A stretch of 50,924 nt of DNA from Candidatus Amesbacteria bacterium (GCA_016219445.1 JACRNA010000013.1:1-50924); one strand, 5' to 3'. Shown: positions 4,616 to 36,498, numbered from the stretch's first letter. Translations and numbers: made by a program. The notes: generated by a model not told the origin, from the letters alone.

Positions 4616-6279
4616 AGTGGAGATATAGAATTTTAAACTTTTCATTTGCAGTATTGGCTGGGATATTGGTCGTTAAACTGGGATATTTACAAGTTATCAA
4701 AGCCTCAGAACTATCCCAAACAGCCAAATCCCAAAGACAAAACACTCAAGTGATACCCGGTAACCGTGGTGATATTGTAGCCTCTGATGGTTTCGTCCTG
4801 GCTTCATCGTATAAAAAATATAAGCTTCAAGTAGATTCCAGATATTTTCCCAAAAAAAGTGATGAGTACGCCAGACTTTTACCACTCATAGGTTCTACAG
4901 CCAGTGCAAATCTATATTATAAATTATCAGATTTAAAAGCCTATTGGTTTACTCTTCTGGATAATTTAAATGATGACCAAAAAAGGGATATCGAAAAATT
5001 AAAAATTCCAGGCCTTGAATGGGAATCGAATATTAATCGTTGGTATCCGGAAGCCAGTGTCAGTGCTCACTTATTGGGGTTTGTGGGAAAAAACGATGAA
5101 GGCAATCCCAAAGGATATTTTGGTCTGGAGGGCTTTTACGACCGCGAATTAAATGGACATCCCGGTAAAATTGTGGGTGAAAATGATGTATTTTCCAGGC
5201 CAATATTACTGGATGGTCAGGAATATGTCCCAGATATTCCAGGATCAGAACTTCAAACATCGATCGATAGAACCTTACAATTTTTAGCTTATGAAAAGCT
5301 AAAGAAAGGCTTGGAAAAATATCAAGCAGTATCGGGAACGATTTCGATAATGGAGCCGGCTACAGGGCGAATTTTGGCTATGGTTAGTCTGCCAGATTAT
5401 GATCCAAACAATTATACTCAGAGTGAAGATTTGCTATATCGCAATCCCTTGATTGCAGATGCATTTGAGCCTGGTAGTACTTTTAAGATTATAGTGATGG
5501 CTTCAGCACTCGACGCAGGAGTCGTTGACGAGAACACAAAATGTCCCATCTGCCGTGGTCCGGTAGCAGTGTCTGATGCTCTGATCAAAACCTGGAACGA
5601 AAAGTATTATCCGGATAGTACAATGACAGAAGTAATTCAGCATTCTGACAATGTCGGTATGGTATATGTAGGCAGAAAACTCGGTAAAGACAAATTACTA
5701 TCTTATTTTGACAAATTTGGATTTGGACGAGAGACAGGTATCGATCTCCAAGAGGAAACTGGAGCTGCTCTTCGAACAAAAGATCAATGGTATGAATTAG
5801 ATGTATCCGCCAGTACCTTTGGTCAAGGTATTGCAGTCACTCCTCTCCAAATGCTTCGGGCTGTAGGGGCAATAGCAAATAAAGGAATAATAATGACTCC
5901 AAAGGTAGTAGATTCTATAGCCGGAAAAAAAATAAATCAAAAAGCTGGTAAACAAATTATCTCAAATATTGCGGCTGCAAAAATGTCTAAGATGATGATA
6001 AATAGCGTAGACCGCGGAGAAGCCAAGTGGGCGAAGCCGGCAGGATTTATAGTAGCAGGTAAGACCGGCACGGCACAAATTCCGGTATCGGGGCACTATG
6101 ATAAGGTCAAGACAATTGCCTCATTTGTGGGTTTTGCACCTGCCGATAACCCTAAATTTGTGATGCTGGTGACACTTCGTGAACCCAAGACGTCACCTTG
6201 GGGATCGGAGACGGCAGCTCCTCTGTGGTTTGAAATATCGCGTGACATTTTCCGTTATTTTGGCTTGGTTCCAAATTAA
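4612..6279 (+). CDS. ftsI: penicillin-binding protein 2/FtsI-type transpeptidase
   Basis: STFK (GSTFKI), SDN (HSDNVG) and KTGT (AGKTGTA) motifs. The ATG at 4612 overlaps the ftsL stop. The track start at 4579 is a TTG extension. Confidence 0.9.
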   Translation: MKWRYRILNFSFAVLAGILVVKLGYLQVIKASELSQTAKSQRQNTQVIPGNRGDIVASDGFVLASSYKKYKLQVDSRYFPKKSDEYARLLPLIGSTASANLYYKLSDLKAYWFTLLDNLNDDQKRDIEKLKIPGLEWESNINRWYPEASVSAHLLGFVGKNDEGNPKGYFGLEGFYDRELNGHPGKIVGENDVFSRPILLDGQEYVPDIPGSELQTSIDRTLQFLAYEKLKKGLEKYQAVSGTISIMEPATGRILAMVSLPDYDPNNYTQSEDLLYRNPLIADAFEPGSTFKIIVMASALDAGVVDENTKCPICRGPVAVSDALIKTWNEKYYPDSTMTEVIQHSDNVGMVYVGRKLGKDKLLSYFDKFGFGRETGIDLQEETGAALRTKDQWYELDVSASTFGQGIAVTPLQMLRAVGAIANKGIIMTPKVVDSIAGKKINQKAGKQIISNIAAAKMSKMMINSVDRGEAKWAKPAGFIVAGKTGTAQIPVSGHYDKVKTIASFVGFAPADNPKFVMLVTLREPKTSPWGSETAAPLWFEISRDIFRYFGLVPN

Positions 6280-34318: not shown

Positions 34319-34480
34319 ATGTGAATTCACTTGAAATCGGCCAGAAGAGGTCAGATCACAATTTCCATACCAATTCAGGCCAGTCACACACCTGCCTCCA
34401 CCGCCGATTCCGACAAACAGACAATTGGCTCCAGCTCTCTCGACTCTTTTGGCTTGGTCAATATCTACAACCGCATTCTC
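34319..34480 (-). pseudogene. remnant of an IMPDH/GMP-reductase-family gene (catalytic-loop fragment only)
   Basis: ENAVVDIDQAKRVERAGANCLFVGIGGGGRCVT resembles GNV.T.E.A..L..AGAD..KVGIGPGS.CTT. Only about 50 codons remain, and they abut tRNA-Thr. Confidence 0.35.
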
Positions 34481-34489
34481 AGAGTCTCG

Positions 34490-34905
34490 ATGATTTTTAC
34501 TGACAGAGAGCCAGGGCTCCAGATATTGACTGATATTTTTTTCATAAGGGGACAATTTATAGAAGAAATTCAATCGTTGGATCCTGTCAAAGTGGCAGTT
34601 CAAAAAGCGCGAGGTTATTATGCAAAATTACAAAAGCCAATACTTGTCGAGGATGTTTCACTATCTTTTTCTGCTCTCCATGGTCTTCCAGGACCATATA
34701 TAAACGATTTTATGAAATCCATATTGAGGGTTTTATAAGTGATAAAGCTCTTGGCGATAATGGTTTTGGCTGGGATCCGATATTTATTCCAGAAGGCTTT
34801 GACAAGACTTTTGCCGAGATAACTGATGCCGAAAAAAATAAATGTTCAATGCGGGCTATGGCATTGAATGAGTTTAATTCATGGTTACAAACTCCCAATA
34901 TCTAG
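34490..34905 (+). pseudogene. decayed Ham1/RdgB-type dITP/XTP pyrophosphatase
   Basis: EEIQSLDPVKVAVQKARGYY...PILVEDVSLSFSALHGLPGPYINDF is in one frame. GFGWDPIFIPEGFDKTFAEITDAEKNKCSMRA is in another. About 60 central codons are missing and the N-terminal TGNxxK is degenerate. Confidence 0.6.
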
Positions 34906-34938
34906 CGCTCGGTTGTGTAAAATTAAACCTACCTAGTG

Positions 34939-35847
34939 TCAATTTTCTACAAATCTTTCTTGTCTAACTTCTGATTTTGGAATGTGCTGTTTTACCTCGA
35001 GTATTTCATATGATTCGTTAACATAGGTTGCTACAGTCGGATCGAATATCTGGTAAATTTTTAGTTTGACTATCAGAATATCACCCTTACCAAACCTTTC
35101 GTCTCTATCTATTTCTTCAAAGAATTCTTTGTCAGTAATATATGCAGAAATTTTGTTTCCCAGATAATAAAATTCCCATTTAAACCTAGAATCAAATACC
35201 AGCTTAAAAATATTTAGGTTTGCAATTTCATCTATTTTTTCTCTTGTTTGTTCATTCTTAATGATTCTTTTGGTTGCTAATAGATCAAACTCGGTTTTAC
35301 TTGCTTCAAAAATAACTCCATTATTTCTCTGTATTTGAAGTCCTGTAATATTAGGATCATCTTGCAATGCTTCAAACCCCTTGCTCAACGAATCGTGTAT
35401 AGTCTGGTTTTTGCTGTAAATATTATGGTAAGTAAAGTTGTAGACTATTACATTTCCATTCACCCCTTCAACTTTAGTTTGATTATTTTCGATCTCGATG
35501 ACATTTGTAGGTTCATGATCTCCCAATATTTTCTTTAGGTTAAATAACTGGATCAATACATCTATTACTAATTTTGCGTATTCAAGATTATCACGATTCA
35601 ACAACTGTGGAATAAGAGGAAGAACCGCTAGGGCACCATCAATCATGTATTTTACCTCAAAACTGCCAGGGGTTAGTGCGACGATTTTTATTTCAATTTT
35701 ATTGTTTGGATTTAGTTCTTTGTTTATTTCTTGGATGACTGAAGATGTACTTAGGAGTGACTCAATAAGTGTGTTTACGTCTACTTGGTGCAACTGACCA
35801 TCAAATTTTACCGTAAAATCATCTCTCATTATTTGCGTTGTAGGCAT
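34939..35847 (-). CDS. orphan hypothetical protein (302 aa), no recognisable family
   Basis: Long uninterrupted ORF. A 60-nt sample counted about 33% GC. It is bracketed by tRNA genes and pseudogenes. Confidence 0.6.
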   Translation of the reverse strand: MPTTQIMRDDFTVKFDGQLHQVDVNTLIESLLSTSSVIQEINKELNPNNKIEIKIVALTPGSFEVKYMIDGALAVLPLIPQLLNRDNLEYAKLVIDVLIQLFNLKKILGDHEPTNVIEIENNQTKVEGVNGNVIVYNFTYHNIYSKNQTIHDSLSKGFEALQDDPNITGLQIQRNNGVIFEASKTEFDLLATKRIIKNEQTREKIDEIANLNIFKLVFDSRFKWEFYYLGNKISAYITDKEFFEEIDRDERFGKGDILIVKLKIYQIFDPTVATYVNESYEILEVKQHIPKSEVRQERFVEN

Positions 35848-35928
35848 TATATACCAATTTATGTTTTATAAAGATGAAAGTCAATATCAATAGTAGAATA
35901 AAATTTCCAACAATTTCCATTTCCATTG

Positions 35929-36114
35929 AGCGGTGGATCGGATTTGAACCCGCTTCTTTTCCTTGCCTGCCCGCCATCACCAGACTGAGTGGGATACGAG
36001 AATCGGACTCGCATCTTCTGCTTGGGAAGCAGACGTACTACCACTGTACTAATCCCACTCGCTCAGGCATGGCAGGCGGGGGAAGGAGACATTCTACCAC
36101 TGAACTACCACCGC
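35929..36114 (-). pseudogene. split tRNA-Gly(CCC)-like gene interrupted after anticodon position 36 by a 115-nt insert
   Basis: The 5' half (36114-36080) is GCGGTGG TA GTTC AGTGGTA GAAT G TCTCC TT CCC. The 3' half (35964-35929) is AA GGAAA AGAA GCGGG TTCAAAT CCGAT CCACCGC T. The T stem no longer pairs. Confidence 0.5.
35988..36058 (-). tRNA. tRNA-Gly (anticodon CCC), nested inside the split gene
   Basis: GTGGGAT/ATCCCAC acceptor, GTAC/GTAC D stem, TCTGC-TTCCCAA-GCAGA anticodon arm, GCGAG-TCCGATT-CTCGT T arm, discriminator U. Position 55 is an unusual C. Confidence 0.8.
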
Positions 36115-36120
36115 ACCCAT

Positions 36121-36498
36121 CTATTTTAATACAAATTTCTGTCCGGGATAGATGAGATTGGGATTTTGGCCCACCACGGATTTATTTAGCTGGTAGAGCT
36201 TGACCCAGTTGTAACCGGAGCCGGTTTGTTCAGCGGCAATTTTCCACAAGGAATCACCTGGTTTGACTACATATTCGGTTCCTACAGCTACGGTCTTGGT
36301 TTCAGTAGTCAGATTGGCTGATTCGGTAGCAGAGGATGAGACATTGGCCTGGTCAGTTACACTTGGGTTTTTAGCTGTTTTGAGATAATTAAATAGTAAT
36401 CCTCCGACCAGAAGGACAACTACAGCTCCCAAAATCATGCTCATGGTTTGTTCGTTTAGACTAAAATTGAGTTTAAACTTTTTCAAAAAGTCTTTCAT
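36121..36498 (-). CDS. LysM-domain peptidoglycan-binding protein with an N-terminal TM anchor
   Basis: YVVKPGDSLWKIAAEQ...NLIYPGQKFVL LysM motif. SD AAGGAG lies 8 nt before the ATG at 36498. Confidence 0.85.
   Translation of the reverse strand: MKDFLKKFKLNFSLNEQTMSMILGAVVVLLVGGLLFNYLKTAKNPSVTDQANVSSSATESANLTTETKTVAVGTEYVVKPGDSLWKIAAEQTGSGYNWVKLYQLNKSVVGQNPNLIYPGQKFVLK

Follow-up and report, generated by a model that had tools for sequence, protein, structure and literature searches.

How does a complete transfer RNA (tRNA) gene come to lie inside another one, and which of the two is the working copy? The question is raised by a contig of Candidatus Amesbacteria (Microgenomates, a group of the candidate phyla radiation, CPR). 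This contig of 50,924 nucleotides (nt), with a G+C content of about 39%, is the whole stretch that we analysed, and it is called the window here. A 100% match of one of its proteins identified the source. On its minus strand, an intact tRNA-Gly(CCC) is located in the anticodon loop of a second tRNA-Gly(CCC), which is split into two halves. We propose that the inner gene arrived with a small mobile cassette, which split a resident gene of the same isoacceptor and replaced it. We give this replacement model, taken as a whole, a probability of about 0.7. These 'Russian-doll' tRNA genes apparently represent an undescribed family in ultra-small (CPR) groundwater bacteria.

The nested tRNA-Gly(CCC) locus and its empty site

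The 5' half of the outer (resident) gene contains the acceptor strand, the D arm, the 5' strand of the anticodon stem, and the loop through the anticodon CCC. The 3' half is decayed. Between them lies the insert, or cassette, composed of two conserved ends, two arms, and the inner tRNA (Table 1). The GCCTGC of the conserved 5' end CCGCCTGC base-pairs with the 3' end of the cassette. Likewise, the 5' arm CATGCCTGAGCGA pairs with the 3' arm CAGTCTGGTGATG, lengthening the acceptor stem of the inner tRNA. If joined, the outer halves would read …CUCCUUCCC|AAGGA… across the junction. A preliminary description, made from the sequence alone, had placed the split between nt 36 and 37 of the resident tRNA. 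This position is borne out, and the coordinates given there for the outer halves, the insert, the closing helix, and the inner tRNA are all exact. Because the insert ends in C, the insertion point is ambiguous by 1 nt (35/36 or 36/37).

Compared with its intact relatives, the outer 3' half of the window has about five substitutions and a deletion of 1 nt. Its anticodon stem presents one C-A mismatch (28:42). The T stem is broken (GCGGG / CCGAT), with pairs 50:64 and 51:63 lost. Both defects had been noticed in the preliminary description. Recognisable homology with loss of required structure is the mark of a tRNA pseudogene. We hold with high confidence that the outer gene is the resident one, now disrupted and dead.

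The inner gene has the features of a canonical bacterial tRNA-Gly. It scores 66.5 bits against the Rfam family RF00005 (gathering score of 29), and it has the anticodon CCC and the discriminator U73. ARAGORN and Rfam detect this gene alone at the locus. Across nine cassettes, the inner helices are 100% paired, with compensatory changes. As far as can be read from the sequence, the inner tRNA is the working gene and the outer gene a dead shell in the window lineage.

Several results show that the arrangement is not due to chance and that the outer gene was formerly intact. The region of 194 nt folds as a double cloverleaf with z = -4.7, and none of 200 shuffles was as good. We scanned one genome per species for the D arm and the anticodon loop, which gave 119 loci. 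Among them, the outer 5' half is identical (35/35) to an uninterrupted tRNA-Gly(CCC) in at least 11 related Microgenomates genomes. When the outer halves were joined in silico, ARAGORN called a tRNA-Gly(CCC), so the flanking halves are tRNA-like, as the preliminary description had supposed. With its intron option, the program called a single gene of 187 nt, with an intervening sequence of 115 nt surrounding the inner tRNA. Finally, an uninterrupted gene exists at the same site in a relative (see below).

The soundness of the assembly had also been questioned. Misassembly is ruled out because independent assemblies agree. The identical site and insert were assembled in three other samples (L163-L165), and 11 further metagenome contigs have a matching architecture.

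To compare the locus in relatives, we took contigs with close homologs of the LysM-domain protein encoded just upstream and examined the DNA after the stop codon. An Amesbacteria genome (L161/L162, LysM identity of 82%) has one uninterrupted tRNA-Gly(CCC), followed by a Ham1 gene. This is the empty site. The gene consists of the outer 5' half and the outer 3' half, joined at TTCCC|AAGG. The homology between the window and L161 stops exactly at 36080 and picks up again at 35953-35924. A plain tRNA-Gly(CCC) is also present in two groups of contigs from the Hainich groundwater wells, with a LysM identity of 85% (L149-L153 and L154-L160). In the three assemblies L163-L165 (LysM identity of 77%), the cassette occupies the same position. 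It presents 5 differences from the window in 115 nt (96% identity), and the inner tRNA of L163 is 97% identical. Apart from the insert, nothing distinguishes the filled allele from the empty one, and at most one base is ambiguous. The empty site is a single gene and not a tandem pair, which would have spoken against a nested unit. These alleles, together with the broken T stem, uphold the first of three readings offered in the preliminary description, where an old tRNA-Gly gene is disrupted by an insert that brings its own replacement.

The two filled lineages show opposite states of the shell. The window has a perfect 5' half and a mutated 3' half. In contrast, L163-L165 have a nearly intact 3' half, and their 5' half is reduced to 11 nt (nt 1-25 are gone). 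Decay by different routes indicates that the outer gene behaves as a pseudogene and that the inner tRNA is the gene being maintained.

The history of the insert is discordant with that of its host. The cassettes of the window and L163 share an identity of 96%, against 75% over the whole aligned stretch of 653 nt (LysM gene plus cassette). Besides, the insert is absent from the relatives that are closer by LysM identity (85% and 82%). Both results suggest that the cassette spread, rather than deriving from a single ancient event. One site with empty (L161) and filled (window, L163) alleles, and an insert at odds with its host, is the pattern of homing-type elements.

Table 1. Features of the nested unit and the adjacent gene in the window (positions counted from the first letter of the window).
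Feature	Position	Strand	Sequence or size	Basis or remark
LysM-domain gene	36121..36498	-		Pfam LysM; 6 nt upstream of the outer 5' half
Outer (resident) tRNA-Gly(CCC), 5' half (nt 1-36)	36080..36114	-	GCGGTGGTAGTTCAGTGGTAGAATGTCTCCTTCCC	
Insert (cassette)	36079-35965	-	115 nt	
Cassette conserved 5' end	36072..36079	-	CCGCCTGC	
Closing helix	36077-36071 / 35971-35965	-	GCCTGCC / GGCAGGC	sequence
Cassette 5' arm	36059..36071	-	CATGCCTGAGCGA (13 nt)	fold and alignment of 12 cassettes
Inner tRNA-Gly(CCC)	35988..36058	-	71 nt	complete cloverleaf, U73; ARAGORN, Rfam RF00005
Cassette 3' arm	35975..35987	-	CAGTCTGGTGATG (13 nt)	complementary to the 5' arm
Cassette conserved 3' end	35965..35974	-	GCGGGCAGGC	
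Outer tRNA-Gly(CCC), 3' half (nt 37-73)	35929..35964	-		decayed; comparison with L161 and L163

The LysM gene is the syntenic anchor of the locus, and it precedes the tRNA-Gly in L008, L099, L122, and L149-L165. For the unit, the sole promoter-like site on the minus strand (36563-36534) is upstream of LysM, and neither a promoter-like site nor a terminator was found between this gene and the nested unit. So, the unit is probably co-transcribed with the LysM gene.

On the other side, the outer tRNA 3' end is directly followed by a segment of about 1.07 kb (34854-35923), absent from L161 and L163-L165. It contains an open reading frame (ORF) of 302 amino acids (aa) at 34939-35847 on the minus strand, with its own promoter-like site. 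This ORF has no match in Pfam; its match is PHROG 3243. Homologs occur in scattered phyla and lie in elements with a large serine recombinase, a TrwB-like coupling protein, and a relaxase. Beyond the segment, the positions 34356-34853 hold gene remnants relative to L161. They comprise IMPDH (guaB) fragments at 34356-34501 and a Ham1/RdgB gene at 34558-34853 with an internal deletion of about 126 nt. Consequently, the 135-aa ORF at 34331-34738 is probably a pseudogene. In the relatives with a plain gene, the tRNA-Gly is adjoined by a large serine recombinase gene (L154-L160; 2907-4430 in L154) or by a RhuM-family gene (L149-L153; 3404-4141). With a recombinase or RhuM gene adjoining it in these relatives, this tRNA is a general integration hot spot.

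The cassette family

The arrangement recurs in more than 15 independent contigs. We scanned metagenomes for a tRNA-Gly 5' half followed by TTCCC and CCGCCTGC, which gave 22 loci, two of them chance matches. Complete units are present in 11 of these loci, with inserts of 107-116 nt. The invariance of CCGCCTGC among them is given by the search design. The same end is found in L089, L122, and L163-L165, which were reached by other routes. The other end, GCGGGCAGGC, was not in any search pattern. Its full 10-mer is identical in 10 of the 12 aligned cassettes; L128 has one substitution, and L134 is without the last four bases. The GCGGG within it is invariant in all 12, and GCGGGCAGGC also occurs in L008, L099, L019, and L163-L165. 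The arms vary in sequence across the 12 cassettes and are mostly complementary to each other.

Two types of tRNA-Gly(CCC) take part in the nesting, GCGGTGG…GTTC AGTGGTA GAAT and GCGGGAT TA GTAC AGTGGTA GTAY, and each serves as host or guest. In a Levybacteria contig (L008), the two types are in reversed order, with GGCGGGCAGGC at the 3' junction. Nesting reaches three levels in L089, which has a 5' half, then a second split tRNA, and then an intact tRNA. Further variants are L096, L099, and L122. The identity of the cassettes between loci is often greater than that of the host exons. In L130 and L147, the cassettes have an identity of 0.98, against 0.80 and 0.74 for the host exons. Likewise, the cassettes of L131 and L144 reach 0.91 despite hosts of different tRNA types.

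The family is not limited to glycine. In L019 (reverse strand, 4790-4960), a tRNA-Thr(CGT) shell is interrupted in its anticodon loop (TTCG|TAA) by another tRNA-Thr(CGT), and this cassette shares the ends of the glycine cassettes (CCCGCCTTCG…GGCGGGCAGG). L148 (about 470-700) presents a tRNA-Thr nested in a tRNA-Thr-like shell, with a perfect arm pair of 15 base pairs (bp), CCCTTCACCTTTTGG / CCAAAAGGTGAAGGG, instead. In every nested unit observed, the guest has the isoacceptor of its host, that is, like nests in like. The recurrence, the exchange of host and guest roles, the nearly identical inserts in different hosts, and the Thr(CGT) version point to a mobile cassette that carries a matching replacement tRNA. 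Very probably, then, the insert of the window belongs to a mobile family.

Cargo-less inserts, whose ends are identical or similar to these and which hold no tRNA, are also present. They are found in D loops (L128, L131, L108, L096), T loops (L099, L134, L139), a variable region (L141), and anticodon loops (L133, L135, L146). In each case, the interrupted tRNA copy adjoins an intact copy.

The consensus of nine units (RNAalifold) is a double cloverleaf with 55 pairs, 25 of them with compensatory changes. The paired cells reach 98.2% on this consensus, against 82.8% in column shuffles (0/500 as high) and 40-50% with slid partners. Pairing is complete (100%) in the outer acceptor helix, whose two strands lie on either side of the insert and in which three pairs are variable. 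At the junction, the stack follows the order of anticodon stem, U32:A38, U33:A37, a C-C mismatch (the 3' junction), C35:G, C36:G, a bulge, and a GC helix of 6 bp. The bulge is of 2 nt and 1 nt in the consensus and holds the 5' junction. The topology is that of a bulge-helix-bulge without the 3-4-3 geometry. If joined, the cassette ends form a near-palindrome, GCGGGCAGG|CCCGCCTGC, as in recombinase sites. The cassette junctions share at most one base with the target.

We also observed GC-rich hairpins of 20-60 nt in tRNA loops, with the forms CCCGCCTGC…GCGGGCAGG, CCCCGCC…GGCGGGG, and GTCCCGAC…GTCGGGA (L128, L131, L099, L141, L133/L135/L146, L143, L085, L108, L096, and L161 at 544-582). The tRNA copies that carry them, in the D, T, variable, or anticodon loop, are redundant or degenerate, and one hairpin is in an intergenic spacer. 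These hairpins resemble a family of miniature inserts that favour tRNA loops. In two contigs of other bacteria, L048 (1106-1352, Chromatiales) and L110 (about 3830, Terracidiphilus), the 5' part of a tRNA-Gly(CCC) gives way to unrelated sequence past the anticodon loop. In L048, an intact tRNA lies downstream of the interrupted part, at a distance of about 170 nt. No intron model matched at L048 or L110. An ARAGORN census of all loci in intron mode consisted mostly of adjacent tRNAs wrongly joined, and it did not enter the counts.

Proposed replacement and movement, and rival explanations

In the replacement model, a resident tRNA gene whose isoacceptor matches that of the cargo would receive the cassette in its anticodon loop, at a precise point and with no duplication of the target. 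In the glycine family, the site would be after C36 of the tRNA-Gly(CCC), or after C35 given the ambiguity of 1 nt. The insertion would split and inactivate the resident gene. The tRNA of the cassette would take over the decoding of GGG, which is why the insertion would be tolerated. The split shell would then decay, and the resident tRNA-Gly(CCC) of the window would be such a shell. Ordinary RNase P and the enzymes that process the 3' end may free the inner tRNA. Thanks to the GC-rich clamp and the arms, this tRNA would fold alone beside the homologous outer halves.

Our best guess for the movement, drawn from sequence comparison, is a 'homing' into uninterrupted alleles by break and repair, possibly with the participation of small GIY-YIG nucleases. 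The precise insertion without duplication and the empty and filled alleles fit homing by break repair. A recombinase or transposase dedicated to the cassette and acting on its conserved ends is equally open; their invariance suggests an enzyme that recognises them. Confidence in any particular mobility enzyme is low. ORFs for GIY-YIG proteins were found inside the cassette of L122, at 0.8 kb from the cassette in L163-L165, and beside duplicated tRNA pieces in L080, L054, L108, and L096. The SegB protein of phage T4 is a GIY-YIG precedent acting on a tRNA gene region (PMC2330249).

These ORFs are small (76-88 aa) and are placed in or beside tRNA genes (Gly, Asp, Thr). Their positions are reverse ~540-760 in L122, 3340-3567 in L080, 2543-2770 in L054, 2810-3001 in L108, 546-737 in L096, and 1440-1706 in L163. 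Each one lies between an intact copy of the tRNA and a partial or degenerate duplicate. The ORF of L122 lies in the D loop of the inner tRNA.

Some observations weigh against the replacement model. The outer stems all pair in five units (L130, L138, L140, L143, L144). The shell of L148 has one mismatch, and that of L128 is intact but carries an extra insert in the D loop. A dead gene should decay, so the intact shells must be young insertions or reflect removal of the cassette at the RNA level. Besides, invariant ends with variable arms are not needed by simple homing and suggest recognition by a protein or RNA processing. The inner tRNA of the window has features unusual for a bacterial tRNA-Gly, the pair U2:A71 and the T loop UCCGAUU (C55). 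Other cassettes have C2:G71, so the first is a compensatory double change. The T loop is also present in uninterrupted CPR tRNA-Gly(CCC) genes (for example L033, L046, L068, and L095). No GIY-YIG homolog is present in the window, and no enzyme could be tied to the cassette. Finally, our view of the genome is of 50 kb, and the counts of tRNA-Gly(CCC) genes and of cassette copies refer to these. A scan of viral contigs for the inner tRNA type gave no match, and neither did exact look-ups of two proteins of the window.

The intact shells are the main reason to consider that the insert is a new kind of bacterial intervening sequence. The transcript would then yield the inner tRNA by RNase P and 3'-end processing, and the outer tRNA by cuts at the conserved ends followed by ligation (for example, of RtcB type), and the window copy would be a member whose outer exon has since died. 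An outer cloverleaf intact in five units and nearly so in two is what this reading expects. So are the compensatory differences across the insert (98.2% against 82.8% pairing), although those of the shell can predate independent insertions. Invariant ends and the bulge-helix-bulge topology of the consensus also agree with it, with the 3' junction by the extended anticodon stem and the 5' junction two bp further on, on the opposite strand. However, the central helix has 2 bp instead of 4 and the bulges have 1-2 nt, which is non-canonical. The cargo-less inserts in D, T, variable, and anticodon loops recall the multi-intron tRNAs of some archaea. Nevertheless, they were observed only beside an intact copy. 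The shell is degenerate or truncated in the window, L163-L165, L147, L134, L137, L136, L129, L122, and L089, and it is damaged, chimeric, or partly missing in L131 and L141 as well. The insert has no catalytic core and no Rfam match, and Bacteria have no known splicing endonuclease. Like-in-like nesting is predicted if the guest compensates for an inactivated host, whereas a spliced intron does not need it.

Replacement is preferred to splicing because like nests in like, cargo-less inserts are confined to redundant copies, and the shells decayed independently. The intron explanation is unlikely. In the window lineage, splicing would be irrelevant because the outer shell is degenerate. For the units with intact shells (L130, L138, L140, L143, L144), it is doubtful that the cassette is excised from the transcript and the outer halves ligated, so that one gene gives two tRNAs. 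If that were the case, CPR bacteria would have a tRNA splicing pathway that is not self-splicing and acts on a mobile tRNA-bearing intron. The relatives without cargo, located in D, T, and variable loops, would count as additional introns of that kind. The preliminary description had also offered an intron-like structured element as a reading. Its structural part stands with the conserved double cloverleaf, and the splicing part is unproven.

Two explanations do without a cassette of this kind. The locus could be the scar of a larger element integrated by a tyrosine or serine recombinase and mostly deleted, with the 302-aa ORF as a remnant. Anticodon loops are known targets of integrases. The orthologous locus is a hot spot where a serine recombinase (L154-L160) or RhuM gene (L149-L153) abuts the tRNA-Gly, and the homologs of the ORF belong to elements with recombinase, coupling protein, and relaxase genes. 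However, there is no direct tRNA repeat, and the outer pieces are complementary halves of one gene instead of duplicated attachment (att) cores. The constant size of 107-116 nt and the constant ends in more than 15 contigs are unlike the random deletion of a large element. The preliminary description had linked such a scar to the adjacent orphan ORF. This link does not hold, since the ORF belongs to the separate insertion of about 1.07 kb, absent from L161 and from the cassette-bearing L163-L165; L161 has neither cassette nor ORF, and L163-L165 have the cassette without it. The junctions, which share at most one base, are a misfit to a crossover core of 2 bp or 6-8 bp. We regard the scar as very improbable. 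Least probable of all is a local rearrangement, where an ancestral tandem tRNA-Gly pair would be reshuffled by recombination or replication slippage without any mobile unit. Two types of tRNA-Gly(CCC) coexist at the locus across Microgenomates, and in L099 an intact gene of one type precedes remnants of the second, which speaks for this origin. Nevertheless, unequal crossing-over between direct repeats gives deletions or tandem copies and not precise nesting, and the empty site is a single gene. Nearly identical inserts occur in unrelated flanks and different hosts, and local accidents should produce neither conserved ends nor a Thr(CGT) version that shares them. The discordance of cassette and host identities also speaks largely against this origin.

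As a candidate identity, an integrase att scar was rejected, with no tRNA direct repeat around the insert and no recombinase in it. By reasoning, the junction sequences fit neither the 2-bp core of serine recombinases nor the 6-8-bp overlap of tyrosine recombinases. A repeat of 21 nt (35910-35930 / 34358-34378, 81% identical, the second copy in the IMPDH remnant) is present near the 3' end of the outer tRNA and is probably due to chance.

Comparison with known systems

The preliminary description knew of no bacterial tRNA within a tRNA. Our literature searches agree: a full-text search found no account of a bacterial tRNA nested in another, though its coverage is incomplete and an earlier description is possible. 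If the replacement model is true, the cassette is a minimal selfish element, a tRNA gene plus about 40 nt of arms. It would persist by destroying, and then substituting for, the resident gene of the same isoacceptor, and its preferred targets would be tRNAs for glycine (CCC) and threonine (CGT) located beside a LysM gene. It would also give a concrete case, open to observation, of how tRNA genes come to be split, nested, and fragmented. So far, tRNA splitting has been argued mainly from the split and intron-bearing tRNAs of archaea. Since the tRNA finders report the inner gene only, nested loci go unnoticed, and the leftover halves may be annotated as fragments or pseudogenes.

Group I introns, such as those of the cyanobacterial tRNA-Leu(UAA) and the Azoarcus tRNA-Ile, are alike in several aspects. 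They interrupt the anticodon loop precisely and without target duplication, they are mobile between alleles, and a helix joins their ends. However, they have about 200 nt or more, against 107-116 nt in the cassettes, which consist mostly of a tRNA. As the preliminary description had argued, 115 nt is too short for such an intron; 71 of them are tRNA and there is no catalytic core. A search with cmscan over 35800-36250 (E up to 10) returned the inner tRNA and three chance-level matches only, so that a group I intron or another known ribozyme was rejected. With group I introns, the exon ends in U and the intron ends in G. Here, the 5' exon ends in C whichever junction is taken, and a terminal G results only with the shifted 35/36 junction. 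In addition, the host exons of the cassettes decay in several lineages, which splicing would prevent.

The bulge-helix-bulge introns of archaeal tRNAs, their transposition in Thermoproteales, and the split and tri-split tRNAs have been reviewed (PMC4090602, PMC4390854, PMC4033280). These are also short inserts without ORFs, in several tRNA loops, with leader and trailer helices. Related inserts occupy different positions and tRNAs, and some genes have more than one. In contrast, the host of the cassette is bacterial, and its junction has a central helix of 2 bp and bulges of 1-2 nt, not 3-4-3. A canonical motif was rejected, as the consensus of nine units lacks the two 3-nt bulges and the 4-bp helix. 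Moreover, the cassette ends are conserved in sequence, and the cargo is a complete tRNA of the same isoacceptor.

Homing endonuclease cassettes and the insertions in CPR ribosomal RNA (rRNA) genes are likewise selfish DNA in conserved RNA genes. CPR rRNA genes carry insertions, and a survey of 2024 makes no mention of tRNA (PMC11270868). CPR genomes are rich in such insertions, and the rRNA and tRNA settings are alike in this respect. GIY-YIG genes also lie near tRNA genes, and SegB of phage T4 is such an enzyme in a tRNA cluster (PMC2330249). Conversely, the window cassette carries no nuclease gene, and a homing role is a candidate only.

Miniature inverted-repeat transposable elements (MITEs) and repetitive extragenic palindromic doublets forming hairpins (REPINs) share with the cassette a size of about 100 nt, a non-autonomous nature, and cargo-less hairpin relatives. 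They also share the terminal inverted repeats (GCCTGC / GCAGGC), present in the window as GCCTGC(C) at 36077-36071 and (G)GCAGGC at 35971-35965, and conserved in the aligned cassettes. However, the cassette has strict tRNA-loop specificity and a functional gene as cargo. This identity was rejected because there is neither a target-site duplication nor an abundance of dispersed copies: the 50-kb window has one, and 1.1 Mb of loci have almost none outside tRNA loops.

Integrative elements that target tRNA genes restore their target with a partial copy that they carry, leaving tRNA fragments (PMC9897764). Like the cassette, they hit a tRNA gene, often in the anticodon loop, the replacement keeps the function, and dead pieces are left behind. 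They differ in that the cassette replaces the whole tRNA in about 115 nt, with no recombinase and no direct att repeats. Besides, what it leaves behind is a pair of matching halves, one on each side of the new gene. Among the systems compared, the cassette works most like these elements that restore their target, but with a whole tRNA and no enzyme of its own.

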